DNA of 64,000 nucleotides from an uncultured Candidatus Saccharibacteria bacterium (GTDB lineage: Bacteria > Patescibacteriota > Minisyncoccia > Phycocordibacterales > JBBTRF01), in the NCBI GenBank assembly GCA_964602975.1, contig CAZRTH010000001.1:5385-69384 (forward strand), read 5' to 3'. Positions 1,277-34,973 of the stretch are shown piece by piece. How positions within the stretch are numbered: position 1 is the first letter of the stretch; the number at the start of each line of letters is the position of its first letter. A program made the translations under genes and the position numbers. The notes beneath the pieces are model-generated. The model searched no databases, was not told the origin of the DNA, and worked only from the letters and a program-made list of their open reading frames with translations.

Positions 1277-1438
1277 TTTTTACTATAATTTTGCTCGCCT
1301 GGCAGTCCACGTTTCGAACCTTGGACTGGCCGGCGGCTTTGGGAGATGCGGAGGTGGCGAGTGGGGAGCTTAGGGGCTTGTTGAGCCTATGTGTATCAGC
1401 CTAGACGTTCACAATGTGCACATGTTCATGCTGACCTG

Positions 1439-2434
1439 CTAATTTTCTAAGAGGTGTTTAGTTTGAATGAGGTATGTCTGAAGATTTTGGATCATGTTCG
1501 TTTTTCCAATCTTGTGCCAGTGGGCAATTTTAACATAGCTATTTAGAAGTACTGATGCCTGCAGCGCTCGCTCAGTATGCGGCTGACCATTAAAGTATCC
1601 ATTTTTCAATTGCTCAGCCGCTTCTGTGATTTTTCCATGAGCTACGGCAATCACGATACTTCGGCCTAAGTCGATATAGCCGTCATTTAGAGAGGGGGTA
1701 GGATCAAACACGGTTATTGGCTCTGTGTCGAGTATATTGTAGGCAGAGAAGTCATTGTGACAGTAGCTACTCTCAGCATTTTCTCCAACATGGGCAAGTA
1801 GTGCCTCAAAGGCTTCCTCGGTTGAACCGTGTTCATTTCCAAGGAGCCCATATTTTTGCGCGTATGCGATTCGTTCTCGATATGGCCCATTCTCGAGCCA
1901 ATCCTTGAACTCAGCGTATTGGGGTACATCCTCGACAATGCGTCCGAAGCCAGTTGCTTTAGCTATGTGCATTTTCTGTAGTGTTCGGCCCATGTCGATA
2001 AAGGTGCCCTTCTCTACCATCTGTTCGTAGGTATTATTTTCCCTCAACGTTTTTGCGTCGACATGATTCATCAGTATGTACGGTCTGTCGCTCAAAGTGC
2101 CGGCCTCAATCACGTGCGGTACTGCCACACCTTGTGTCTCCCAAGCCTTAAGAAACTCAGCTTCTTTTTCTTGGTGTGTTCCTAGTGGGATTTTTAAAAC
2201 CAACTTTTCATTCGGGGTTTCTATGAATGAGACGAGAGATGAGACGCCGTTTTCAGAAAATGTGACGCTAACCTCCTGGCCAGCAAACCGTTCGCTCGCT
2301 GAAATATACTCTGCGATTTTAGAGACTAGGGCTGTCCGCAGCTCATTCGCTGCACGATCGATCTCGTGTTCTGAGAGTTTGGGTTGGTTACGTAGCGTTA
2401 TGCTTGGTGGCTGTTTGGCTGATTCAGGATACAT
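1439..2434 (-). CDS. aminoglycoside/choline-kinase-like phosphotransferase (APH family)
   Basis: 331-aa ORF; catalytic-loop-like CHNDFSAYNIL (cf. APH HGDxxxxN) and D-x-G (IDLGRS) typical of kinase-fold phosphotransferases. Confidence 0.6.
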   Translation of the reverse strand: MYPESAKQPPSITLRNQPKLSEHEIDRAANELRTALVSKIAEYISASERFAGQEVSVTFSENGVSSLVSFIETPNEKLVLKIPLGTHQEKEAEFLKAWETQGVAVPHVIEAGTLSDRPYILMNHVDAKTLRENNTYEQMVEKGTFIDMGRTLQKMHIAKATGFGRIVEDVPQYAEFKDWLENGPYRERIAYAQKYGLLGNEHGSTEEAFEALLAHVGENAESSYCHNDFSAYNILDTEPITVFDPTPSLNDGYIDLGRSIVIAVAHGKITEAAEQLKNGYFNGQPHTERALQASVLLNSYVKIAHWHKIGKTNMIQNLQTYLIQTKHLLEN

Positions 2435-2465
2435 GTCATGAGTATACCAAAAAAGTCTTTAACTA

Positions 2466-2485
2466 TGCTCCGGGAGTTGGGATCG
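2466..2485. repeat. 20-bp direct repeat of tRNA-Asn 3' end (tgctccgggagttgggatcg); second copy at 2639..2658
   Basis: Perfect 20/20 identity with the T-loop/acceptor 3' end of the tRNA, 153 bp downstream of the tRNA 3' end. Confidence 0.8.
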
Positions 2486-2601
2486 GTCACGGATAATTTC
2501 TTCGCCGCCGCTCAGAAATTTCCGCGACCCCGGCTCGCGGTTCGGCCTACTGGCCTCACATTCGCTCCGCCTTTCTCACCCTTACTCACCGGTAGGCAAA
2601 A

Positions 2602-2631
2602 CAAAAAGACGCCACTTTATGGCATCTTTTT
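2602..2631 (-). terminator. rho-independent terminator downstream of tRNA-Asn
   Basis: Minus-strand reading: AAAAAGAUGCCA-UAAAG-UGGCGUCUUUUU followed by GUUUU. Confidence 0.6.
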
Positions 2632-2678
2632 GTTTCGCTGCTCCGGGAGTTGGGATCGAACCAACGACCAATCGCTTA

Positions 2679-3268
2679 CGTTGAATCCATCATTACTGAT
2701 GGCACGGACTATATCATCTCCATGTTTGTCTCGGTCGAGACAAGGTTAGGAGCGAGGGGCTTCGTGGGCACTGGCACCTGCTTCATGCCGACTACTCTTT
2801 AAAAAGATAGTCTCTACACCTTCCGAATGTCGACGCTTCTCAGCATGTTCATTCGGCTCGGCTCGGGGTTGTCCTACTTAGACTGCGTAGGATTTCTCCG
2901 AATTCACCTCGTTTTTCATCCTTGCTTTCGCAGGGAAGCTGCATAATACCCGCTCCGACTTCTCTGTGGCAATTTGCACAAAGGAGTACGCATTTGTCCA
3001 ACTCTGCTCGTACTTTCTCCCAAGACCTTGTATATCCCTTGTCACCTATGCCAAAACTTTTTTGAGTTTTGTCCACGTGATGAAGTTCAAGGGCACCTTG
3101 GTATCGATCGTAGCTACAGATCTGGCATTTGCCTCCTTTATACTCAATGGCCATTGCTTTAACCTTCCGTCGCCTTTTGGCTACGGCTTTGATCAAAGCT
3201 TCTCGTCGGTCGGCGTATTTTCTTCTATCTGAAGACATAATGGAATTATATCAAGAAAGAAGACCGTC
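2679..3268 (-). other. group I self-splicing intron (590 nt) in the anticodon loop of tRNA-Asn
   Basis: 5' splice site follows U (cctgt|agac) and the intron ends in G (caacg|taa). R-like GUGUAGAGACUAUC and S-like GAUAUAGUCC (P7 strands) are present. P-like GAAUUCGGAGAAA and Q-like AAAUCCUACGCAG sit upstream of R. An internal HNH ORF is present. Confidence 0.75.
2849..3238 (-). CDS. HNH homing endonuclease (intron-encoded)
   Basis: 129 aa; CQIC...ELHHVDK...N...LLCANCHREV = CxxC / HH / N / CxxCH HNH motif; lies wholly inside the intron. Confidence 0.75.
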   Translation of the reverse strand: MSSDRRKYADRREALIKAVAKRRRKVKAMAIEYKGGKCQICSYDRYQGALELHHVDKTQKSFGIGDKGYTRSWEKVRAELDKCVLLCANCHREVGAGIMQLPCESKDEKRGEFGEILRSLSRTTPSRAE

Positions 3269-3388
3269 TACAGGCGATTGCTCTACCGCTGAGCTATCCC
3301 GGAATATGTGTGCGTCTGCGGGCTATCTTACCAGAAACACCAAAAAAGTGAAGCCTACGAGCGGTGCCGCCCATGCTACACTTTCCTC

Positions 3389-3622
3389 ATGTATATCAAG
3401 GTCCGCGTGAGGGCAGGTGCCAAGGAGGAATCGTTCGATAAGGTCTCAACGGATCACTTCAAGGTTGCCGTACGAGAGCCGGCCGAGCGCAATCTAGCGA
3501 ATGGCCGCATCATCGAGCTTGTCGCGCGGCATTTCAAAGTACCGACAGGGAAAGTGCGTATCGTGAGCGGACACCACTCGCCGTCGAAGATTTTGAGTGT
3601 CGATGTTCCCGATGCGGTGTAA
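3389..3622 (+). CDS. DUF167/YggU-family protein
   Basis: MYIKVRVRAGAKEESF...DHFKVAVREPAERNLANGRIIELVARHFKVPTGKVRIVSGHHS matches the YggU/UPF0235 pattern. Start moved to the ATG at 3389 so it does not overlap the tRNA exon. Confidence 0.6.
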   Translation: MYIKVRVRAGAKEESFDKVSTDHFKVAVREPAERNLANGRIIELVARHFKVPTGKVRIVSGHHSPSKILSVDVPDAV

Positions 3623-3766
3623 AAATTTGGATGTCTGACCGTCACCCTTCCACGTTGAACCCGTGTTGAGCGAAGCGATCGAATTTGGTAAAATAGGGGA
3701 GTAAGAGGCAGCGTCGGTCGCAGTACCTGTCATCACGGCAAGTCATATCCACTAACTAACACCCAT

Positions 3767-4147
3767 ATGCGTATCACGACAAAAGCGACGAACACAAGCC
3801 TAACTCCTGCGATCTCGGAGTATGTACAGAAGAAGATCGGTAATGTTGAAAAGTTGATCGACGGGAATCTTCGCGAAGCGGCTCGAGCTGACGTGGAGAT
3901 CGAGCTCACCACGCACCACCACAAAGCGGGTGATGCACTCTTTCGGGCAGAGGTCAGCCTCCATGCCGGTGATCTACATTTGCGAGCCGAGGAATTTCAT
4001 TCCGACCTGTACGCAGCGCTGGATCTCGTGAAGGACGAGCTCACTCAAGCGATCATTTCGAAGAAAGACAAGCGCCTCAGCTTGTTGCGCCGTGGTGGTC
4101 AAAAGGTGAAGGACATGATCAAAGGGTTTCCGTGGAAGCGCGGTTAG
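3767..4147 (+). CDS. hpf: ribosome hibernation promoting factor / RaiA family
   Basis: 126 aa; N-terminal MRITTKATNTSLTPAISEYVQKKI..., size and charge pattern of the sigma-54 modulation/HPF family. Confidence 0.75.
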   Translation: MRITTKATNTSLTPAISEYVQKKIGNVEKLIDGNLREAARADVEIELTTHHHKAGDALFRAEVSLHAGDLHLRAEEFHSDLYAALDLVKDELTQAIISKKDKRLSLLRRGGQKVKDMIKGFPWKRG

Positions 4148-5000: not shown

Positions 5001-5571
5001 TGGAGGGTCGGGGCAGAGGCATTTCTTTTATATCTTTTGCTTTGTCTATGAAAAGTACGCCGTTGAGGTGATCGACCTCATGTTGGAAGATCTGGGCGAG
5101 GAGACCACTGGCGCCGCGCTCAAAGGCTTTGCCATTCGCGTCGAAGGCGCGAATAGTGGCCTTTGAAGCGCGGCGCACCTTTCCAAACAACGGCCGAACG
5201 CTCAAGCAACCCTCTTCCATGGATTTTTTGTCTTTTGAGGTGGCGACGATCTCTGGATTGATATATACCAATTCTCGTGAAGCGCGTTCACCGGTGGTTC
5301 CATTCTGATCTTCATTCTGATCTGCTTTTGCAACTTTCGCATCTGGACTATTTTCCGCGGAAAAGACGATTTCCGAAATGATAAACACACGAAGCGGCAC
5401 ACCGATCTGAGGCGCGGCCAATCCGACCCCGTCCGATTCCTTTGCGAGAGCCTCACGCATGTCTTTTAGTAGTGCTGTAATACGGGCGCTGCCGATATCT
5501 TTTATGGGCACCGGTTTCGCCACCTGTCGGAGCACAGGCGCGTCTTTCTGCAGAATGTCCTTCATGGCCAC
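4984..5571 (-). CDS. def: peptide deformylase (with low-complexity insertion)
   Basis: GVGLAAPQIG, EGCLSV, QHEVDHLNG motifs; about 30-aa acidic insertion. Confidence 0.9.
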   Translation of the reverse strand: MAMKDILQKDAPVLRQVAKPVPIKDIGSARITALLKDMREALAKESDGVGLAAPQIGVPLRVFIISEIVFSAENSPDAKVAKADQNEDQNGTTGERASRELVYINPEIVATSKDKKSMEEGCLSVRPLFGKVRRASKATIRAFDANGKAFERGASGLLAQIFQHEVDHLNGVLFIDKAKDIKEMPLPRPSNEHAH

Positions 5572-5592
5572 ATACTAGCCGATTTTGTCAAA

Positions 5593-5625
5593 AAAAACCA
5601 GCAGGCCGGGAGGGCACTGCTGGAG
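5593..5625 (-). terminator. rho-independent terminator (downstream of priA)
   Basis: Minus-strand CCAGCAG-UGCCCUCCCGGC-CUGCUGG followed by UUUUUUUUU; a second 10-bp stem lies at 5700..5738. Confidence 0.6.
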
Positions 5626-5863
5626 GGGGTTCGATTTCAGGTTCAAGAAAGCTGACGGACGGGAGTAGACAAGGTCCTTAACCCCGTCCGTCATTCGCTC
5701 AGGCAGTGGGGTGCCCGAGTTACTGATTTTCGATGTTCGCGGGCCGTAGTGTTGGCGGCCGGTCAAAACCATCCAACGCTCTACGGAGAGCACCGAGGCC
5801 GAAGTAAGCATAGCACCAAGCAATACTGCTGTCAAGCCTCTGTCGAGGGAGTTTTCCCCATTA

Positions 5864-7762
5864 TCATAGCAAGCTGTCCGGATCGATCTTTATAGTCCAT
5901 CGTGGCGAAAGACCTTGAAAACGAGCCGTCATCTCGGGGTTCGGCCATTTATGTTTCGGAATTTTGATAAGCGCATGCAGGATTGAGGTGCCATTTTTGC
6001 CCTTCACAAAAGAAGGAAATACGTCCATTTCACAGTCGCCAAACAGTGCCTTCGCCTTGCCCATTTCTGCTACAATTTCATCCTTCTTTCCTTCAATGGA
6101 GAGCTTGATGAGTACATTGAAAGGCGGATAATGAAAAACCCTTCTCAGATCGATCTCGTTGCGATAGAAATCGAGAATGTTGCCTTTCAAGGCATATCCG
6201 AACAACGCTTGCTTTGGATCTCGCGTCTGCAAGAGCAGGGTCTTATGGGTGCAGGAACGGATGTGTAGCAAAATGCTCAACACCTTTTCGCTGATCTTGA
6301 AATCGGGGATCGAAAACAGGGAGTCGATCGACGCAACGGCGCTATTCTGAATGGGAGTGTCGAGATAGAGGAGTGCCATTTCTGTGCCGATCAAAATACT
6401 ACCGGGAGTTTCATAAAATTGGGCGGCGATCTTCGCGCCTTGTTTGTGTGTGGCGACAGAGTCTTTGTTCAGTGAAAAAATGTGCGCATCGGGGACGATC
6501 TTCCGAATCTCTTCCTCAATCTTTTCGGTACCCGCGCCGAGAGTGACCAGCTTCCAGCTATCACAATTAATGCAGCGCTCTTCCGCCGAGCGTCGCTCTC
6601 CGCATTTGTGGCAGAGGAAGAACGGGCCGTTCTTGGATGAGTGCAAAACCACCGGACTTTGACATTCGTTGCACGCCACGATCGTGCCGCAGTCGCCGCA
6701 GATGGTCGTGGGCGAGAGTCCTTTGCGCGCGACGAAGACAAACAGGTGTTCGTTGTTCTTTTGATTTGTCCGGATCAATTCTGCGAATTCGTCACTGATG
6801 ATCTGATATTTTTTTGCGATACCATTGGCCGGCGCTTCGGTCTTGTATCGGCGCAGGTCTGCGATCACTGCTTCGCAAGTGGTGAGAGAACGAAATTTGA
6901 TCGGATACAGCTCTTGGAATTCGCCATTTTGGTGTCGATATACGGTCTCGGTCTGAAGAAAGATATCACCAAATACGATCTTCGCTCGCAGCTGCTTTGC
7001 GAATTGCTCGGCAAAAGTGCGAATATCGAGGAAAGGCCGCTGTTGGATCTTGTACGTTCGAGAACTCTCTTTTTCGACGATGATTGCGCCAATATCTTTT
7101 CGAGGAAGTGAGAGGAATGGTCCCGTGGCGATGATGAGTACTGGGTGATCCGTGGCGAGGAGTCTGCGGCAGCGTTCCAGGATCTCTTTCTTGCTGAGAG
7201 AGCTGTGTAGTACAAACGTATATTCCTCGATGCCTTTCTCGAGACGTTTTACTGTCGCTTGGATATCGTGGAGCGTCGGCAAGCAGAAAAACACGGATCC
7301 CTTGCGAGCGAATGTTTCGCGTATCAGGCTTTTGTAATGGCCGAAGCGTTCTTCCTCATCGGTCTGTACAATGTATGCTTCATGTAATGGCGATTGTCGC
7401 CGATCCGAATGTCTGATGACCAGCGAGTCGGCTCCCTCAAGCAGGGCTTTCGGGATCATGGAATTGAGAACGGCTCCGGTAGTGGCGGCGAAATGCGCGC
7501 CGGCGCGTTTGGCGGTCTCGATGAATTCCGGCAAAAGGAAGGGCGCACCGGCGGCCGACAGCTTCTTCAATTCAAATGACGCCGACTTTATCTCCGACTT
7601 TAGATCCTCGGCTTTTTCGCAAGAGACGACAAGGCCGGCCACCGTGCGTTTGTTGATCGGCACTTGTACCACCGAACCCGGAGCGATCGGTTCGATGCTG
7701 AAATATGAGAGTGTCTCTCGTCCAAGGCCTTTGGAGAAGGGGATAACATGAAGTACCTGCAC
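5864..7762 (-). CDS. priA: primosomal protein N' (PriA helicase)
   Basis: 632 aa; Cys-cluster zinc-binding region CGDCGTIVACNECQSPV...CHKCG...CINC; DEAD/helicase layout. Confidence 0.85.
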   Translation of the reverse strand: MQVLHVIPFSKGLGRETLSYFSIEPIAPGSVVQVPINKRTVAGLVVSCEKAEDLKSEIKSASFELKKLSAAGAPFLLPEFIETAKRAGAHFAATTGAVLNSMIPKALLEGADSLVIRHSDRRQSPLHEAYIVQTDEEERFGHYKSLIRETFARKGSVFFCLPTLHDIQATVKRLEKGIEEYTFVLHSSLSKKEILERCRRLLATDHPVLIIATGPFLSLPRKDIGAIIVEKESSRTYKIQQRPFLDIRTFAEQFAKQLRAKIVFGDIFLQTETVYRHQNGEFQELYPIKFRSLTTCEAVIADLRRYKTEAPANGIAKKYQIISDEFAELIRTNQKNNEHLFVFVARKGLSPTTICGDCGTIVACNECQSPVVLHSSKNGPFFLCHKCGERRSAEERCINCDSWKLVTLGAGTEKIEEEIRKIVPDAHIFSLNKDSVATHKQGAKIAAQFYETPGSILIGTEMALLYLDTPIQNSAVASIDSLFSIPDFKISEKVLSILLHIRSCTHKTLLLQTRDPKQALFGYALKGNILDFYRNEIDLRRVFHYPPFNVLIKLSIEGKKDEIVAEMGKAKALFGDCEMDVFPSFVKGKNGTSILHALIKIPKHKWPNPEMTARFQGLSPRWTIKIDPDSLL

Positions 7763-7841
7763 GTTCCTATAGTATCTTTTGCGTCGGCAAAAAGGAAGTT
7801 CTCCGCTTCACAAGAGCGGGATTAGGCCGTACAATCGGGAA

Positions 7842-9197
7842 ATGCACTCAGATCGATTTATTGTGGAGGGTTTGGCGGGGAAGAAAACGCTGCGCGGCCG
7901 TGTTCAGATCAACGGAGCAAAAAACGCTGTGCTCAAGGCAATGGCCGCAAGCGTACTTTTTTCCGATGAGGTTCTCATCGCCAACGCGCCAGATACCGAA
8001 GATGTGAAGAAATTGGCCCATCTCATGCGGCTTGCCGGCGCGGAAGTGTCGCTCGATAGTGCGAAAAAGGAGATTCGAATCAATGCCTCTAGTATTGTGT
8101 CGACTGATCTCGATCATGAGACTACAAAATCAATGCGCGGCTCCGTCATGCTCACGGGGCCGATCTTGGCTCGCTTCGGCAAAGTGTCTTTCAATGTACC
8201 TGGCGGTTGTGTTATCGGCGCTCGACCGATCGACCTCTATATTGATGCGTACAAAAAACTCGGCGCGAAGGTGAACATTCAGGGTGATCATCATGCGATC
8301 GAGATAGAAGAAAACGGAAAGTCAGGAAGCAAACTTGTCGGCGCGGAAGTTTTCTTCGCGCTTCAGACAGTCGGCGGTACCGAGACGATGATGATGGCAG
8401 CTGTGCTCGCCAAAGGCACGACGGTGTTGAAGAATTGCGCGATGGAGCCGGAGATCGTCAGCCTCGCAGAATTTTTGGTTCAGTGCGGGGCGAAGATCGA
8501 GGGTATTGGCACCCCGACAATGACGATCGTCGGAGGGGGTTTGCTAAAGGCGAATGGCAAGGCGTATCGCACTATTCCGGATCGTATTGAAGCGGGGAGT
8601 TTTCTGCTGTTGGGCGCACTGTGTGCCGACGATCTGCTCATCGAGCACTGCAATCCATCTCATCTCGAATCGGTTACTTCCGTTTTGAAAGATGCCGGAG
8701 TAGCTCTCGAGATCGGCAAAGATTCAATTCATATCAAAGAGAATGCAAAGACGAAATGGTTGGATGTTCGGAGTTTCAATGTTCGTACGCACGAGTACCC
8801 GGGATTTCCGACCGATCTTCAGCCGCAGATGGTGGCTTTTCTTGCACACACTGCCGGCGAGGGGATCATGTTCGAGACGATTTACGAAGGCCGATTTAAA
8901 TACGTCCAGGATCTGATCCGAATGGGAGCGCAGATCACCGAAATGAATCCGCGCGAGGTGTTGATTCGAGGGTTTGGCGACGAAAAAGTGGGAGATGGAA
9001 CCAAAACGCTGATTGCGCTTGGCGAGGATGAACCGTTGCAGGCACACGATATTCGCGCAGGCTTTGCGATCGTGATGGCGGCTTTGGCTGCGAAAGGCAC
9101 CTCGGTGATCCAGAACACTTACTACATCGATCGTGGATATGAAAAGCTCGAAGAGCGCCTCGCTTCGCTCGGCGCCATAATTCGACGGAATAAGTAA
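7842..9197 (+). CDS. murA: UDP-N-acetylglucosamine 1-carboxyvinyltransferase
   Basis: MHSDRFIVEGLAGKKTLRGRVQINGAKNAVL... typical MurA N-terminus; EPSP-synthase-fold length. Start chosen at the internal Met. Confidence 0.9.
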   Translation: MHSDRFIVEGLAGKKTLRGRVQINGAKNAVLKAMAASVLFSDEVLIANAPDTEDVKKLAHLMRLAGAEVSLDSAKKEIRINASSIVSTDLDHETTKSMRGSVMLTGPILARFGKVSFNVPGGCVIGARPIDLYIDAYKKLGAKVNIQGDHHAIEIEENGKSGSKLVGAEVFFALQTVGGTETMMMAAVLAKGTTVLKNCAMEPEIVSLAEFLVQCGAKIEGIGTPTMTIVGGGLLKANGKAYRTIPDRIEAGSFLLLGALCADDLLIEHCNPSHLESVTSVLKDAGVALEIGKDSIHIKENAKTKWLDVRSFNVRTHEYPGFPTDLQPQMVAFLAHTAGEGIMFETIYEGRFKYVQDLIRMGAQITEMNPREVLIRGFGDEKVGDGTKTLIALGEDEPLQAHDIRAGFAIVMAALAAKGTSVIQNTYYIDRGYEKLEERLASLGAIIRRNK

Positions 9198-29658: not shown

Positions 29659-29730
29659 GGCCCTATCGTCTAACGGTTAGGACGGAAGCTTCTCAAGCTT
29701 TAAATCGGGGTTCGATTCCCCGTAGGGTCA
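29659..29730 (+). tRNA. tRNA-Glu(CUC)
   Basis: 72-nt cloverleaf. Acceptor GGCCCTA/TAGGGTC with G2-U71. D arm GTCT/GGAC. Anticodon stem GAAGC/GCTTT with loop TTCTCAA. T arm CGGGG-TTCGATT-CCCCG. Discriminator A. Confidence 0.85.
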
Positions 29731-29879
29731 CAGATTTTGAGCAAACGGAGTGCAGCGAAAAAGCGGTGACCCTAAGCTCGTACTTGAGCACGAGCGGCGG
29801 GGAATCGAAGGGGGTCTCCCATATTTTCGAGGAGTTCTGCTCCGAGAAAATGGGAAACCCGTACTGGTCCTGTAAGGAC

Positions 29880-29900
29880 CGATTCCCCGTAAGTCTCCAT
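29880..29900 (+). other. tRNA-like 3' fragment (cgattccccgtaagtctcca), shares a 12-bp core with the tRNA-Glu T-loop/acceptor
   Basis: cgattccccgta identical to tRNA-Glu positions 29713..29724; preceded by hairpin ggtcc-tgtaa-ggacc; part of a 445-bp structured non-coding stretch. Confidence 0.5.
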
Positions 29901-30175
29901 TTTACATGTTCTGGTGGTGGTTAGATAAGTGGCGGTCTGGGTTTGTGTGCGGAGATTTGGGGACGCGATTTGCGACGTCGGCTGGAGGACAGTGAGAAGC
30001 GGTAGGTCCAAATACAAAGCCACCCTCCGCGAGGAGGGTGGCCCTTGGATGTTATACCCTATCAGTTACGAGAACCGATAGACAGATACAATATAGCAAA
30101 ACCGAGCGAAAATGACAAGAATCTGGCGGATAGAGTTTTTTGTTTACCTCCGTTCAATATGATACGCTTTAACGC

Positions 30176-30793
30176 ATGTCCTCACTCCGGATGAATACTA
30201 AACCCGTAATCGCCATCGATATCGATGATGTTATTGCCGCAAACGCCACTGCGTTCATAGAATTCAGTAACAAAAGGTACGGTACACACCTGACCGTCGA
30301 TGATTACCATGAACACTGGGCCGAATTGTGGAAGGTCAGTCGTGACGAGGCCGAGCAGCGTGCAGTTGAATATCATGATTCCGGCCACATCGGAACATAT
30401 TCTGTTATCGAGGGAGCCGATCAAGCCCTTCGCCGACTAAAGAAACAATTCAAGCTCATTGCTTTGACGTCCCGCCGCAATTGCGTCAACCAACTAACAA
30501 GAGATTGGTTAGTGAAATATTACCCGAACATTTTTGAAGATATTGTGTTCTGTGGATTCTTCGATTCCCAAAAGGTAGGTATTCATTACACCAAAGGAGA
30601 GTTGGCCAAGTGTGCAGGAGCCGATTACATCATCGACGATCAGCTCAAGCACGTCTCGGCTGCCGCACAAAACGGTATCAAAGGACTTTTGTTCGGAAAT
30701 TATTTTTGGAATAAAGCCGATATTTTGCCGGAAAATGTTACTCGTGTTAAGGATTGGGAGGAGGTCTTGGATTATTTTAAGGTTGACAAATAG
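30176..30793 (+). CDS. HAD-superfamily 5'(3')-deoxyribonucleotidase-like (NT5C family)
   Basis: N-terminal VIAIDIDDVIA (DxDx[TV] HAD motif I); about 200 aa; typical NT5C size. Confidence 0.7.
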   Translation: MSSLRMNTKPVIAIDIDDVIAANATAFIEFSNKRYGTHLTVDDYHEHWAELWKVSRDEAEQRAVEYHDSGHIGTYSVIEGADQALRRLKKQFKLIALTSRRNCVNQLTRDWLVKYYPNIFEDIVFCGFFDSQKVGIHYTKGELAKCAGADYIIDDQLKHVSAAAQNGIKGLLFGNYFWNKADILPENVTRVKDWEEVLDYFKVDK

Positions 30794-30940
30794 GATCGAA
30801 TAGTGTTATTATACGACCGGTACTGGAGCTCTTTAAAAGCCGTTTTTTTCATTTTACTACAGCGGAAAGTCCCTCATGGAGCCAAGGTGGGCCTTCCTGC
30901 TGTAGTAAACCTTCTGCTAAGCAAGAATGACAAGAAGAAA

Positions 30941-31552
30941 ACTATGAAACACTTGGAATTAGTAGCACAGATTAAGTCTCTGCGTTGGGAGTTGGCGACG
31001 ATGCCTGATCTTCTGGGTCTCATGCTCCTCAGCGCCTGCGCGGCGACCGAGTTTGCGGAGTCACTCAGGCTGGCTCGCACGCTCTACCCGGGCAATCTAG
31101 CCTTCGAGGCTCTGATTGCAGGGGAGCTGGAGGTGGACAACATCCATTTCGCAGACTACCAGCGCCGCGGCGACCACAGCGCTTTCCTGTGGCATTTCAT
31201 CGAGAAGCACAACATTCACGTCAGGTGTCCTCGAGGAGTAAGAGAGGCTGGTGAGGTCTATCTTCGCTCAGTTCGCGCGCTTCCAGGTCACACTCGGGCC
31301 ATGAGCATTGTCTCTCGTGAGCGGGAGCTCCCTGGAATCTTCAGTGCGATACTGACTGCTCCGGGTTGGAATATGGAACCAGAACTGGAGGCGTTCGAAT
31401 ACTACCTCCAGCAACACATCGCCCTGGATTCTGGCGAAGGAGGGCACGCAGAGTTACTCTCGAGCTTCTCCGTGGATGACTCCGTCACCCCGTTTTACGA
31501 GGCTCGCCTGGAAATGTATCGCATTCTGCCTGTCCTCTTCACCGCACGCTAA
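30941..31552 (+). CDS. hypothetical protein, possibly DUF3050 / haem-oxygenase-like fold
   Basis: YYLQQHIALDSGEGGHAELL resembles the DUF3050 signature; weak. Start at internal Met. Confidence 0.35.
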   Translation, partial: TMKHLELVAQIKSLRWELATMPDLLGLMLLSACAATEFAESLRLARTLYPGNLAFEALIAGELEVDNIHFADYQRRGDHSAFLWHFIEKHNIHVRCPRGVREAGEVYLRSVRALPGHTRAMSIVSRERELPGIFSAILTAPGWNMEPELEAFEYYLQQHIALDSGEGGHAELLSSFSVDDSVTPFYEARLEMYRILPVLFTAR

Positions 31553-31653
31553 GTCATCTGAACCGCATTCAACACATCACCGGCAGCCTCCTGGAGGACT
31601 GCCGGTTCTTTTATTCCCTGGAGCCCGCGTACTAATTTGCTATACTTATCTAA

Positions 31654-32049
31654 ATGGAAAATCTCCCAACACCTCCTAAAGAGGCGATTCTGTATGAGGA
31701 TGCAAAGCTGTACATCTGCCTTGCTTCGTTCCCGATCACAAAAGGTCATACAGTGATCGTGTGGAAGACTAAGGCAGAGGACATACACTTGCTTTCTCGT
31801 GAGGACTACGAGTATTTGATGGATGCAGTGGATGTGGCCCGCGATGTTCTGTTGGAAAAACTGCAAGTTCAGAAAGTGTACTTGATGTACATGGACGAAG
31901 CTCGGCAGGTGCATTGGCATCTCATTCCTCGTTATGAAGAGCAAGGATTCAATTTACTTTTACATACTCCGGTCGAGACGACTGACTTTTCTCTTGCGTC
32001 GGTGTTGGAGGGCGATCTTCAAATCAAGATGGGGCAGTTTATTCAATGA
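31654..32049 (+). CDS. HIT-family hydrolase
   Basis: Histidine triad QVHWHLIPR (HxHxHxx) near the C-terminus; 131 aa. Confidence 0.8.
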   Translation: MENLPTPPKEAILYEDAKLYICLASFPITKGHTVIVWKTKAEDIHLLSREDYEYLMDAVDVARDVLLEKLQVQKVYLMYMDEARQVHWHLIPRYEEQGFNLLLHTPVETTDFSLASVLEGDLQIKMGQFIQ

Positions 32050-32052
32050 AAA

Positions 32053-32078
32053 AACGCGGCAGTTGCCTGCCGCGCTTG
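32053..32078 (-). terminator. rho-independent terminator for paralog A (hairpin cgcggcag-ttgc-ctgccgcg plus U-run on minus strand)
   Basis: 8-bp stem; the minus strand reads ...GCAACUGCCGCGUUUUUU; homologous hairpin at 34324..34345. Confidence 0.6.
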
Positions 32079-32113
32079 CGTGTTTGGTTCAAACCGCCCC
32101 AGGGGATCGGTGC

Positions 32114-32839
32114 TTAGTTCAACGGATTGCCATTCGCCGTAACGTCTTTCGCGGCATTCCGCCGGACGATGACGAAGTCGTGGCCGTGTTCGATCTCGAA
32201 GAGCTGCGGCGCCTTGCCGTTGTCGTGCTCTGTTTCGGTGGCATCCTCGGCAGGGAACTCGCGTTTGACGACGATCTTCCAGCCTTCACGGATTCCGACT
32301 TGGGTGCCCGTCTCGTGACGTTGAGGCATGTCGGCCAACAGGTGCTGACTGAAGAGAGTTGCAGCTAGGGTCGAGAGCGCCTGCAGCCGTTCCTGTCGCT
32401 GTTTGCGAGGCTCGACCTCGCTGCGATTTTTCGCGCGGGGCAAGGCGCCTGCTTTCTCAGCGAATTCGTTGCTCAGTCGGAAGAGTTCCATGGTGACGCG
32501 AGAGGTCACGACGCCAATCTCACGCTCGGTGTGAGGATCCATCGCCTGGAGGGGATGGAAGAGTTGGGAGTCTGCCGACTGTTTGCCTTGGTAGATGCCG
32601 GCCAGCGCGCGGAGGAACTGTCCCTTGTCCTGTTGGACCAAGGTCCTGCCGGGGAGGGTGATCACCTCCTCGTCCTGTGGTTTTTTGACCGCCCGACTTC
32701 CGTGACTTCTCAGCCTTGTGGGCTTGGTTTTCGGTGCCGTCGATGTCTTCATGGTGTGTCCTGTGTTTTGGTTTTTTCTCGGCCAAACTTCCGGTTGGCT
32801 CTCGGGTGCGGTACTCCTAGACGAGGAGCACGAATTCAT
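32114..32839 (-). CDS. hypothetical protein, paralog A of a two-member family (high GC)
   Basis: 241 aa; shares LRALAGIYQGKQSADSQLFHPLQ...MELFRLSNEF...KIVVKREFPAEDATETEHDNG with ORF 34378..34893. Confidence 0.55.
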   Translation of the reverse strand: MNSCSSSRSTAPESQPEVWPRKNQNTGHTMKTSTAPKTKPTRLRSHGSRAVKKPQDEEVITLPGRTLVQQDKGQFLRALAGIYQGKQSADSQLFHPLQAMDPHTEREIGVVTSRVTMELFRLSNEFAEKAGALPRAKNRSEVEPRKQRQERLQALSTLAATLFSQHLLADMPQRHETGTQVGIREGWKIVVKREFPAEDATETEHDNGKAPQLFEIEHGHDFVIVRRNAAKDVTANGNPLN

Positions 32840-32875
32840 AAAAACTTAACATTTCAAAGCGCTTGTTGTCAAATC

Positions 32876-33589
32876 ATGCGTAGTATCCTATTTATGTCTG
32901 AGACTTCGACATCCTACTTTGGTATACTTCTCCAAATGAGCAAGAGACTACTCCATACCCTCCACTGCCTCTGGCGCGGTGAAACAATGACACGGATCTT
33001 GATGCACGAGGGCCTCTCCCGCGAAACCCTGAAGGGGAAGGTGGTGGATATTGGCGGTGGCCGCAATCCTGCGTATTTCAACTATCTTCAGAAAGATGAG
33101 AGAGGCAAGACTGCTGTCTCGATAGAAGCCCTAGACGCCTCCATCTCTGGGATCGATTTTGAAAAAGACATATTGCCATATCAGAACAGCTCGATCGACA
33201 CTGTCCTGCTCTGCAATGTGCTCGAACACGTATACAACTACCGCTTTCTGCTCGGCGAGATCCTTCGTATCATGAAACCCTCGGCTCAGATGATCGGCTT
33301 CGTGCCGTTTTGGGTGGGATACCATGCCGACCCGCACGACTATTTTCGGTACACCGATGAATGTCTGCATCGTATCTTTTCGGAGGTTGGTTTCAAGAAT
33401 ATCCGCATCGTCCGTATCGGTCGGGGACCGCTCCTTGGCAATTTCAACACCGTCGTCCTTTCTCTGCCACGCTTTCTTCGCCCGATTCTTTTCTTGCTGT
33501 ACGAGAGTGCGGACCGGATCTTCGTGTGGCTACGTCCGAATAGCGTGAAGCGCAACCCGCTCGGATATTTGTTTGTAGCGGAGCGCTAG
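32876..33589 (+). CDS. class I SAM-dependent methyltransferase (Methyltransf_11-like)
   Basis: Motif I VVDIGGGRN, post-II LLCNVLEHV, IMKPSAQMIG; start set at the ATG at 32876. Confidence 0.75.
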   Translation: MRSILFMSETSTSYFGILLQMSKRLLHTLHCLWRGETMTRILMHEGLSRETLKGKVVDIGGGRNPAYFNYLQKDERGKTAVSIEALDASISGIDFEKDILPYQNSSIDTVLLCNVLEHVYNYRFLLGEILRIMKPSAQMIGFVPFWVGYHADPHDYFRYTDECLHRIFSEVGFKNIRIVRIGRGPLLGNFNTVVLSLPRFLRPILFLLYESADRIFVWLRPNSVKRNPLGYLFVAER

Positions 33590-33685
33590 TCGCCGACGTT
33601 GACAAAATTACAAAAACTGGCATAGTGTTGGAGGTTTCGGATCGACTTGCATTCACGCAAGAGTCCGAGTTTCGCTATTTGATTC

Positions 33686-34222
33686 ATGAAAACGTTCACT
33701 CCCATCACTGCGGCCGTTTTGGCCATGCTCGCTTTTGTCGGATCTACTTGGCGAGCTGGCGCCCAGCAAGCGCCTGCTCAGCCGGCCGCTGCAGCAGACA
33801 GCTTTTACGTCCTCACCAACAAGATCGAGTGGCTGTGCTCGCCGGCCATCCTCGGACCGCTCGCGACGAACGACGTGGCCTACACCGTGAAGAACATCCA
33901 AAGCAATGTCTGCGGGGTCTTCGTGATCTCCTATCCGACAAAACTGCCGGCGAAGACGCCCATCATCGTCGAGCGGCTGGATGACCTGCGAAGCTTCAGC
34001 TTCTATTTGAAAGTGGTGAAGGAAGCCAGCATTCAAGGCGGTCCACCGAGCGAATATGTTGATGGAGCGATTGTCGTTCTAGAACCTTCCAAGCCGGAAG
34101 AGGGAAAGAACATTGCCTACGTGAAGGTTGGGAAGATCTTCTACACCGGCCCGACTGGCATTCAATTCGGCCGTATTTCCAGCGAAACCTTCCATCTTCG
34201 ACGATACGGCACCAAGCCGTGA
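33686..34222 (+). CDS. secreted hypothetical protein (signal peptide), high GC
   Basis: MKTFTPITAAVLAMLAFVGSTWRAGAQQ signal peptide; no domain recognised. Confidence 0.55.
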   Translation: MKTFTPITAAVLAMLAFVGSTWRAGAQQAPAQPAAAADSFYVLTNKIEWLCSPAILGPLATNDVAYTVKNIQSNVCGVFVISYPTKLPAKTPIIVERLDDLRSFSFYLKVVKEASIQGGPPSEYVDGAIVVLEPSKPEEGKNIAYVKVGKIFYTGPTGIQFGRISSETFHLRRYGTKP

Positions 34223-34323
34223 TCAAGGACATTTGGTTCGCTAAGTCATACAGTCTGCGCCGCTCGCTCCCCGCGAGCGGCGCTTCTTTTTTTGCTTCAG
34301 CCAAATAAGAAAATAAGAAAAGC

Positions 34324-34345
34324 CCGGCAGTTGCCTGCAGGGCTT
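34324..34345 (-). terminator. terminator hairpin homologous to 32053..32078 (shared core ggcagttgcctgc)
   Basis: 9-bp stem with one mismatch; the minus strand is followed by a UUUUCUUAUUUU tract. Confidence 0.55.
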
Positions 34346-34377
34346 CGAGTTGTCGGACCGATTATTCGCTTCGAGGG

Positions 34378-34893
34378 TTACTCTTCGCAACCATTGCCGC
34401 CGTTACGGGCCAGACGCTCGCGTTCGCTCTGGATGCGCCGGGCCAGCACCTCGCCGAAGGAAACCGCTGTGCCGCCATTGAGCATACGAAGCATGGCCGC
34501 CATGGAGTCGGTCTCCTCGTTGGACTCGTGCTCGATGACGATGTGCCAGTCCACACGGAGGCCCAAATCGTCCTTCTTGAGCTTCGCGCCGATCTCGCCT
34601 TCGACCTCGACCCAGAAGAGCTGCATGGCAGTTTCGGTGAGGTTTCCCAGGTGCTTCCGTAGGTGGTTGTAGGCCTCCATCTCGGACGGATCTTTCGGCA
34701 ACGGCACTCCGAGAGCCCGCTGCTTGAACTCCATGCCGAGCCGGAAGAGTTCCTTCGCCATCTGGGAGGTGACGATGTGAACACACTTCTCGCCGAGCGG
34801 GTTGATGGGCTCGAGCGGGCGGAACAAGGCGCGGCCTTCGGAGGTCTTGCCCTTGTAGATGCGCGCGATCTCGTCGGCGAAGTCCTTTGAGCC
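34378..34893 (-). pseudogene. 5'-truncated paralog B of ORF 32114..32839 (possibly still expressed from the TTG at 34827)
   Basis: In-frame homology to paralog A (GSKDFADEIARIYKGKTSEGRALFRPLEP...) starts at the first sense codon after a TGA stop at 34894..34896. There is no ATG, only a TTG at 34827. The region further upstream is unrelated. Confidence 0.5.
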
Positions 34894-34973
34894 TCATTTT
34901 AAGGCTCCGTATTCCCGCTCTTTTATCCCCACTCTCCCTGCTCTGATTGGCGGATATTCGGTACAATGGAGGC

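Follow-up and report, generated by a model that had tools for sequence, protein, structure and literature searches.

Background

The segment from the T loop to the 3' end of tRNA genes represents the classical T-loop class of tRNA attachment (att) sites. Integrative elements targeted to tRNA genes in this way also have non-autonomous derivatives, namely cis-mobilizable element (CIME)-like elements and solo remnants. A different kind of short insert is found in Thermoproteales archaea, where short tRNA introns have been transposed among tRNA genes. The present analysis concerns a small non-coding element behind the tRNA-Glu(CUC) gene in 64,000 nucleotides of DNA (64 kb, hereafter the window) from an uncultured Candidatus Saccharibacteria bacterium (GenBank assembly GCA_964602975.1, contig CAZRTH010000001.1, positions 5,385 to 69,384 of the forward strand). 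An earlier note on this DNA had described the 445 bp downstream of the tRNA as a structured region with features of a transfer-messenger RNA (tmRNA). The element is conserved and strand-specific, with a covariation-supported fold. As judged from pattern and covariance model (CM) matches in relatives, it is a member of a large family, widespread in the Patescibacteria (candidate phyla radiation, CPR), that accumulates behind tRNA genes; its members are called cassettes in the following.

The element behind tRNA-Glu

The tRNA-Glu(CUC) gene named in the earlier note (29659-29731, + strand) is confirmed by ARAGORN and Rfam (RF00005, 62.9 bits); CCA is not encoded in the gene. The 445 bp downstream are indeed free of credible coding sequences (CDS), as the open reading frame (ORF) list holds only short ORFs between 29732 and 30175, one of them overlapping the tRNA. 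Because an independent Logan assembly (L244) reproduces 29703-31544 with one mismatch, the locus is not an assembly artefact. A search for population variants of the exact locus returned a single 1.8-kb contig (99.95% identical), and the MurF look-up was empty.

The significantly structured part of this region comprises 134 nt (29766-29899), with a minimum free energy (MFE) of -61.4 kcal/mol against -41.2 +/- 3.5 in shuffles (z -5.72; 0 of 200 shuffles as stable). The last ~19 nt of the tRNA (T-loop C56 to discriminator) recur in both arms of this element, as reverse complement in the 5' arm and as direct copy in the 3' arm; pairing of the two arms closes a core of three hairpins. The 12-bp sequence that the earlier note had found common to tRNA-Glu and a tRNA-like 3' fragment is present at 29713 and 29880 (CGATTCCCCGTA); the repeat finder adds two reverse-complement copies of the tRNA 3' end that had been overlooked, GTGACCCTA (29766-29774) and CGGGGAATCGAA (29798-29809). 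The locus consists of the following parts:

29713-29731, + strand: T1, the final 19 nt of tRNA-Glu (CGATTCCCCGTAGGGTCAC), the segment copied by the element (repeat D2)
29732-29765, + strand: leader from tRNA to element, centre of an imperfect palindrome uniting the tRNA 3' end with the 5' arm
29766-29774, + strand: 5' arm, part a (T2a, GTGACCCTA), reverse complement of the acceptor 3' strand and discriminator (inverted repeat I1)
29776-29795, + strand: hairpin I (GCTCGT / ACGAGC, 8-nt loop)
29798-29809, + strand: 5' arm, part b (T2b, CGGGGAATCGAA; inverted repeats I4 and I5)
29810-29860, + strand: hairpin II, long variable arm of the three-way junction in the MFE fold
29861-29879, + strand: GTACTG and hairpin III (GTCCT/AGGAC, i.e. 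GGTCC-TGTAA-GGACC)
29880-29899, + strand: 3' arm (T3), repeat D2
29900-30175, no strand: spacer before the NT5C gene, not counted in the element, with one strong hairpin at 30019-30042

The arms of inverted repeat I1 (29723-29738 and 29759-29774) are 16 nt long and 88% complementary. This palindromic arrangement recurs at three loci fetched from relatives (L001, L093 and L116), and a T1-to-T2 palindrome with the leader at its centre is frequent. T2b is the exact reverse complement of the T loop plus the T-stem 3' strand (TTCGATTCCCCG) and pairs through 29798-29807 with 29880-29889 to form helix P1, which covaries and shows GC, AU and CG at two of its pairs. Within T3, positions 29880-29891 are an exact copy of tRNA nt 56-67, and the remainder is AGTCTCCA in place of the expected GGGTCAC. 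In the CM alignments, non-canonical pairs are confined to the acceptor-like helix of the window copy, which is therefore complete except for the acceptor half of T3; this half has decayed. No other copy of the full T1 19-mer exists within three mismatches anywhere in the window, and there is no third copy of the tRNA end.

Two structural types

The sequences of the relatives sort into two main scaffolds, type A and type B. Type B, a family defined in this analysis, is composed of TGACCCTAAG (the form in which T2a is kept among type-B elements), hairpin I, CNGRGAATCGAA, the long hairpin II, GTACTG, hairpin III with a TGTAA loop, and CGATTCYCNG-TAGGGTCAC. Type A starts with GTGAT, a 4-bp hairpin, A-GAATCGAAAG and a hairpin P2 with a GGA/GA internal loop, followed by GGGGTCGCGG-hairpin-CCGTGACC (P3) and CGATTCC-CNG-TAGGGTCAC. 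The window element belongs to type B: all its blocks can be aligned, it stands immediately behind the matching tRNA, and it deviates only in the acceptor half of T3, which reads AGTCTCC for GGGTCAC.

Covariation in type B was evaluated in 20 aligned sequences including the window. Pairing is possible in 90.5% of cells, compared with 71.8% in shuffles and 36-45% in slid controls; double-sided changes occur in 22 of 36 pairs, and the covariation score is 0.50 versus 0.15 in shuffles. All pairs of hairpins I, II and III covary, with double compensatory changes in all six pairs of hairpin I, covariation at all seven basal pairs of hairpin II and at five of five pairs in the GTACTG / hairpin III region, the columns of which are near-invariant. 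A covariance model built from 19 type-B sequences, with the window left out (R3), yields a single match on the 64-kb window (29767-29897, 87.9 bits, E 7e-17). For type A, covariation extends to 16 of the 21 predicted pairs, one G.U pair is invariant in 24 of 24 sequences, and G.U exceeds A.C by 37 to 2; the invariant pair and this ratio assign the fold to the tRNA-carrying strand. Conserved junctions and loops of the cassettes are GAAAG, GGA/GA, AGCA, GUACUG and UGUAA.

Distribution and matching of arms to tRNA genes

Loci of relatives were anchored on murF/MurF and drawn from species-representative genomes; by these loci the source of the window is a member of the Patescibacteria/CPR. A T3-like copy follows tRNA-Glu in 6 of the 18 MurF-anchored loci (the window, L001, L002, L009, L025 and L032), in each case 50-250 nt past the tRNA, and at least 80 metagenome loci match a pattern derived from two such loci. 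Samples with cassettes include SRR8931233 and the Hainich groundwater sets. The cassettes are 110-170 nt long, non-coding and positioned directly 3' of tRNA genes. Their general layout is T1 (the tRNA end), leader, T2 (reverse complement of T1), structured core and T3 (direct copy). In 82 loci, the modal match between T3 and tRNA is 18 nt long; on the left it begins within the T loop (TT|CGATT), and on the right it extends to the discriminator plus 0-3 nt. T2 reverse-complements this tRNA segment and covaries with T3. Cassettes with a T3 unlike T1 are those of L046, L072 and L090. At L090 the two arms match each other, not the neighbouring tRNA, and the distal copy (T3) therefore belongs to the element.

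Among the fetched loci, the same cores are also found behind tRNA-Ser(CGA), Val(GAC), Phe, Leu(UAG) and Arg(CCU), the arms being re-matched in each case, so that together with Glu and Asn two cores occur behind seven tRNA species in all. For the tRNA-Ser element of L059, the P3 hairpin agrees in 41 of 42 positions with those of tRNA-Glu elements in L056 and L101, whereas the arms differ completely. A same-strand tRNA is present within 700 nt upstream of 91 of the 116 CM matches, and the copy behind tRNA-Val in L080 begins only 2 nt past the tRNA, which leaves no space for a promoter.

A second cassette behind an intron-split tRNA-Asn

The window contains one further cassette on the opposite strand:

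2465-2603, - strand: type-A element (model R2, 47 bits, E 7e-10) behind an intron-split tRNA-Asn

The 3' arm of this element (2485-2466) is an exact repeat of the last 20 nt of tRNA-Asn (2658-2639), and a long leader hairpin lies between tRNA and cassette. No known Rfam family matches the element. The tRNA-Asn(GUU) gene (3303-2639, minus strand) is interrupted in its anticodon loop by a ~590-nt group I intron (Rfam Intron_gpI, 37.3 bits, E 1e-7, under the gathering score of 50) with a 129-aa HNH-like ORF at 3238-2849 (Pfam HNH, 20.2 bits, slightly below cut-off). With splice sites placed by inference, the exons 3303-3270 and 2678-2639 join to a canonical tRNA-Asn(GUU); the gene is missed by ARAGORN because the intron with its HNH ORF splits it. 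Cassettes behind tRNA-Glu and tRNA-Asn mean that both tRNA genes in the 64 kb carry one. An APH-family kinase gene (2434-1439) comes after the type-A cassette.

Arrays, islands and unusual contexts

Tandem arrays of two units, some with mixed types, are present in L056, L083, L094, L102, L113 and L120. The cassette behind the same tRNA-Glu is of type B in the window and of type A in the closest relative, L001 (MurF 81% identical). The type-B cassette of tRNA-Val(GAC) is found in two tandem copies in L118 (527-794) and in one copy in L080 (4454-4587), with 100% identical flanks, which is population-level copy-number variation. L018 and L064 represent an empty and a filled allele with flanks 94-97% identical. 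The L064 insert (1335-4113) comprises a leader, a type-A cassette, a repeat, a 2.6-kb island and a third short repeat, and ends in TTAGGGTCAC, abutting the original tRNA trailer; the island encodes an APH kinase, the family also found beside the type-A cassette of the window, and contains the decayed remains of an ORF that resembles a large serine recombinase. L088 (reverse complement, 5190-8897) has a type-B cassette and behind it an island of 3.7 kb, with a 46-nt direct repeat at its borders that corresponds to the type-B 3' part (hairpin III and tRNA-end copy). This island possesses inverted repeats of ~70 bp close to either end and codes for a KilA-N protein, and no integrase. A third island, in L009, lies between a type-A and a type-B element. 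Turnover of the cassettes is evident from the arrays, the copy-number difference, the allele pair and the islands. One core serves different tRNAs, units pile up in arrays, close relatives differ in their cassettes, and T3 serves as boundary repeat of islands.

Some units deviate from the general layout. The second array unit in L083 (~400-520) and in L102, termed type C, has a type-A-like core inverted between the usual arms, so that R2 matches the strand opposite to the tRNA, which suggests inversion between the inverted arm copies. In L097 (7076-7231, +), a type-A core stands directly past the apparent stop codon of ftsZ, a gene recognised from its C-terminal peptide only; the final ~33 nt of the CDS have their antisense in the 5' arm, which would make a long hairpin with the 3' end of the mRNA, and the 3' portion is partly duplicated downstream. 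Just 5' of an intact tRNA-Phe, L110 (2067-2215, +) has a type-A core set between nt 1-22 and nt 27-39 of tRNA-Phe. At L021 (8090-8200, +), the sequence upstream of tRNA-Glu consists of a promoter-like stretch that is duplicated, nt 1-23 of tRNA-Glu and an insert of 45 nt.

Spacer and neighbouring genes

The spacer 29900-30175 folds no better than shuffles (z -1.21 on the + strand, -0.68 on the - strand), gives no CM match and is without a homologue among 123 fetched loci. The claim of a 445-bp structured region consequently holds for 29766-29899 (z -5.72) and fails for the unconserved 29900-30175. A second, degenerate element in the spacer was considered and rejected, given the lack of a CM match, of a homologue and of a third tRNA-end copy, and a fold at shuffle level. 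The stable GNRA-capped hairpin reported in the earlier note does exist, as a GCGA-capped 10-bp hairpin at 30019-30042. A T-run (TTTGTATTT) comes after this hairpin on the minus strand only, and the minus strand also bears a promoter-like site, TTGTCA-17-TATATT with TG, reading from 30118 to 30090. Hairpin and promoter-like site (30012-30118, minus strand) could yield a predicted small RNA of ~70 nt; the arrangement is not conserved in any fetched locus.

The tRNA-Glu gene is preceded by genes of FtsI and MurF and followed by that of an NT5C-family nucleotidase, starting at 30176. Between the tRNA-Glu locus and an ORF run common to both, the window (30176-34900) and L001 (7700-8800) contain different gene sets: NT5C, a DUF3050-like protein, HIT and a methyltransferase in the window, and a RelE/RelB-like pair, as judged from sequence only, in L001. 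The common run beyond is pilin-like by the look of its sequences. Since the gene sets of window and closest relative differ, the region 3' of the cassette is a variable island in both.

Searches for mobility genes, free copies and earlier descriptions

Across the window and 80 metagenome loci, no recombinase, reverse transcriptase or transposase was found in cis, and the neighbours look like housekeeping genes. The ORF clusters from the 80 loci include MurF, FtsI, RsmH, MraZ, TsaD and ValRS (named from their sequences and from window Pfam hits), and Pfam searches of the window and island ORFs gave APH kinases, KilA-N, HNH, NT5C and HIT. The one exception is the L064 island with its sub-threshold remnant of a recombinase zinc ribbon (18.4 bits, cut-off 25.3).

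No free or viral copy of a cassette was found in IMG/VR or among GenBank phages. Two specific patterns had no match in the IMG/VR viral contigs. A loose pattern of the type-A core matched at least 120 IMG/VR stretches; none of the 80 that were screened passes R2, so these look like chance. A blastn search against 50,697 phage records gave no match. A full-text search of the literature found no description of such elements, nor is there an Rfam family for them, and the cassette family appears to be undescribed.

Proposed mechanism

The reading we lean towards, although tentatively, is that of a non-autonomous mobile cassette targeting tRNA 3' ends, which would enter and leave by site-specific recombination inside the segment from the tRNA T loop to the 3' end, with an attC-like arrangement of its arms. 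The recombinase would be supplied from elsewhere, in trans. The folded T2-core-T3 hairpin would rebuild the duplex form of the att site, in the manner of integron attC versus attI, the tRNA gene taking the part of attI. As the cassette brings a copy of the tRNA 3' end, the tRNA would be left intact. The core is probably also made as a putative RNA, co-transcribed with the tRNA and freed by the processing of the tRNA end. Having lost the acceptor half of T3, the copy behind tRNA-Glu in the window is most likely an immobile relic.

Several points weigh against this reading. A unit of ~150 nt is not known to have any means of moving itself, and neither a mobility gene in cis nor a free or viral copy was recovered by the searches above. 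The invariant G.U, a tandem G.A and the conserved loops are more like a functional RNA than like a DNA site. A simple att model predicts neither the 5' arm matching a non-tRNA upstream sequence in L097 nor the type-A core inside 5' tRNA fragments in L110. Furthermore, the changes in copy number could arise without a dedicated recombinase, if repeats underwent unequal crossing-over. A broader version of the same idea, more doubtful in our view, would see an integron-like system of the Patescibacteria with tRNA 3' ends as primary sites, in which arms would be re-written for each upstream target and units captured, stacked, inverted and lost; insertion may be guided by structure or RNA with no recombinase in cis, and the cores may be guide or recognition RNA.

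Alternative explanations

The tRNA-like 3' fragment and short strings resembling the tmRNA consensus had led the earlier note to consider a permuted, two-piece tmRNA, and nothing else speaks for it. ARAGORN calls no tmRNA in the window, and the standard and permuted Rfam models are without a match in the region, either at gathering score or at E<=10; the only match of the tmRNA families at E<=10 (tmRNA_permuted, 11.8 bits, gathering 47) falls inside the nucleotidase CDS at 30194-30244. Over the window region Rfam reports tRNA only at gathering score, and at E<=10 no known RNA family in 29732-30175, a mascRNA-menRNA match of 26.8 bits (gathering 42.5) being on the tRNA itself and not on the element. 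The 3' fragment is a derivative of tRNA-Glu, without likeness to tRNA-Ala, and has its pairing partner in the 5' arm of the element (29798-29807). The putative 5' piece is unstructured and unconserved (z -1.2, no homologues), and GGGGACGCGATTTGCGACG, taken for the tmRNA 5' consensus, sits in this part with no support from any detector. The ORF list contains no tag-like ORF, as had already been remarked. With ARAGORN, Rfam, tag ORF and 5'-piece tests all failed, a tmRNA is effectively excluded and its probability next to nil. The other two suggestions made at the time, an att-type duplication and a novel structured RNA, both point in the right direction: the 3' fragment is the 3' arm of a covarying element, and this element is flanked by a repeat from T loop to tRNA 3' end, as in tRNA-targeted integration. 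The structured RNA had been thought of as lying upstream of the nucleotidase gene, and the position of the stretch upstream of that gene, on the same strand and in a long non-coding gap, would suit a cis-regulatory leader (riboswitch or attenuator) of NT5C. In relatives the element accompanies tRNA genes, not that gene, and follows them regardless of what lies downstream, be it an opposite-strand toxin-antitoxin pair (named from ORF sequence) in L001 or assorted housekeeping genes elsewhere; in the window, 275 unstructured, unconserved nt separate it from the start codon. Lacking any association with the gene, an NT5C leader is refuted in practice and very improbable.

Two further explanations were weighed. 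The element may be a gene for a cellular small RNA mimicking tRNA, in which the T2 and T3 arms imitate an acceptor/T minihelix. Its release from the tRNA co-transcript would be the work of RNase P, RNase Z and the CCA-adding enzyme, the core would bind a partner, and mobility would be secondary. Covariation, the invariant G.U, strand specificity and the conserved junctions and loops agree with such an RNA, as do the position of most CM matches behind a same-strand tRNA and copies without room for a promoter such as that of tRNA-Val in L080. Against it, a generic mimic needs no copy of its particular neighbour tRNA; T-loop nt 56-60 are base-paired in P1, so there is no tRNA elbow, and the discriminator is paired in type B. 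Mixed arrays, type swaps, inverted cores and patchy presence (~1/3 of loci) are also unlike a housekeeping RNA, and no YrlA- or mascRNA-type Rfam match reaches threshold in the element. We regard this explanation as the main rival, although rather unlikely in itself; it overlaps with the mobile cassette and does not exclude it, for the cargo of the cassette could be such an RNA. That the elements are inert attL/attR scars of decayed prophages or islands once integrated in the tRNA 3' end, without function, seems improbable because of the covariation. A repeat spanning T loop to tRNA 3' end as at tRNA att sites, the islands between such repeats and the partial decay of the window copy are what scars would leave. 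Across many lineages, however, scars would keep neither compensatory changes nor an invariant G.U nor conserved loops, and they would not recur as two cores behind seven tRNA species with re-matched arms, and the viral and phage collections yielded no carrier phage or plasmid with these cores.

Significance

If this account is correct, tRNA genes across a large and poorly understood bacterial branch carry small structured, apparently undescribed cassettes, a family based on the covariance models built here and an independent assembly of the locus. Cassettes of this kind would account for many "orphan" tRNA 3' fragments and for long intergenic gaps close to tRNA genes in CPR genomes, and would mark hot spots of island entry in these tiny genomes. 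They pose the mechanistic question of how a protein-less unit of 150 nt gains target-matched arms in both orientations, including arms matched to non-tRNA targets, a question of relevance to tRNA mimicry and to the programmable insertion of DNA at matched sequences. For annotation, a false tmRNA lead is removed, and the type-A and type-B models could become RNA or repeat families.

Comparison with known systems

Like the tmRNA (ssrA), the element ends in a tRNA-like 3' strand, but every defining tmRNA feature tested failed in it. YrlA Y RNAs, mascRNA and viral tRNA-like structures have acceptor-like and T-stem-like helices in common with the cassettes, which are potentially recognisable by tRNA-end enzymes; the cassettes differ in lacking the T-loop/D-loop elbow and a threshold Rfam match, and in copying their sequence from the adjacent tRNA. 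The tRNA introns of Thermoproteales are likewise related short inserts at loop positions of different tRNA genes. In the cassettes, however, a complete tRNA precedes the insert, repeats of the tRNA 3' end flank it, and the bacterial hosts are not known to possess a splicing endonuclease. With miniature inverted-repeat transposable elements (MITEs) the cassettes share small size, lack of coding capacity, inverted-repeat arms, multiple copies and patchy presence, whereas their arms copy the target and not the ends of an autonomous element, they are strictly tRNA-adjacent, and no parent transposon is known. Some other systems were set aside. The anatomy does not fit IS110 bridge RNAs (short guides, adjacent half-sites, recombinase gene beside), the palindrome-associated transposable elements (PATEs) of IS200/IS605 or casposons, whose terminal inverted repeats are unrelated to the target. 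The cassette core is too small for group I or II introns, and retrons and diversity-generating retroelements (DGRs) drop out as no reverse transcriptase is present. No Rfam match indicates a small self-cleaving ribozyme.

Elements integrating into tRNA genes also possess a direct repeat from T loop to 3' end (18 nt as modal length in the cassettes), restore the tRNA by their insert, form arrays and islands at the same tRNA, and occur as empty and filled alleles, as L018 and L064 do here. The cassettes are distinguished by a length of only ~150 nt with no integrase or ORF of their own, by the addition of an inverted att copy and a covarying core, and by the re-targeting of one core to many tRNA species.

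In comparison with integrons, the primary site is formed by the 3' ends of many tRNA genes instead of attI beside intI, and no integrase is found in cis near the tRNAs of the window and the 80 loci. The arms are 18-20 nt long and tRNA-derived, not GTTRRRY, and most units lack an ORF, their cores being three-way junctions with RNA-like motifs. Both attC sites and cassettes are imperfect hairpins, with the core of the primary site repeated in one arm (R') and inverted in the other (R''), and in both the structure is conserved above the sequence and is strand-specific. Integron arrays and cassettes alike stack units in tandem behind one primary site, with lineage-specific types comparable to the repeats of the VCR type. 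The likeness in inverted-core hairpin, repeated primary site and tandem units is one of architecture only.

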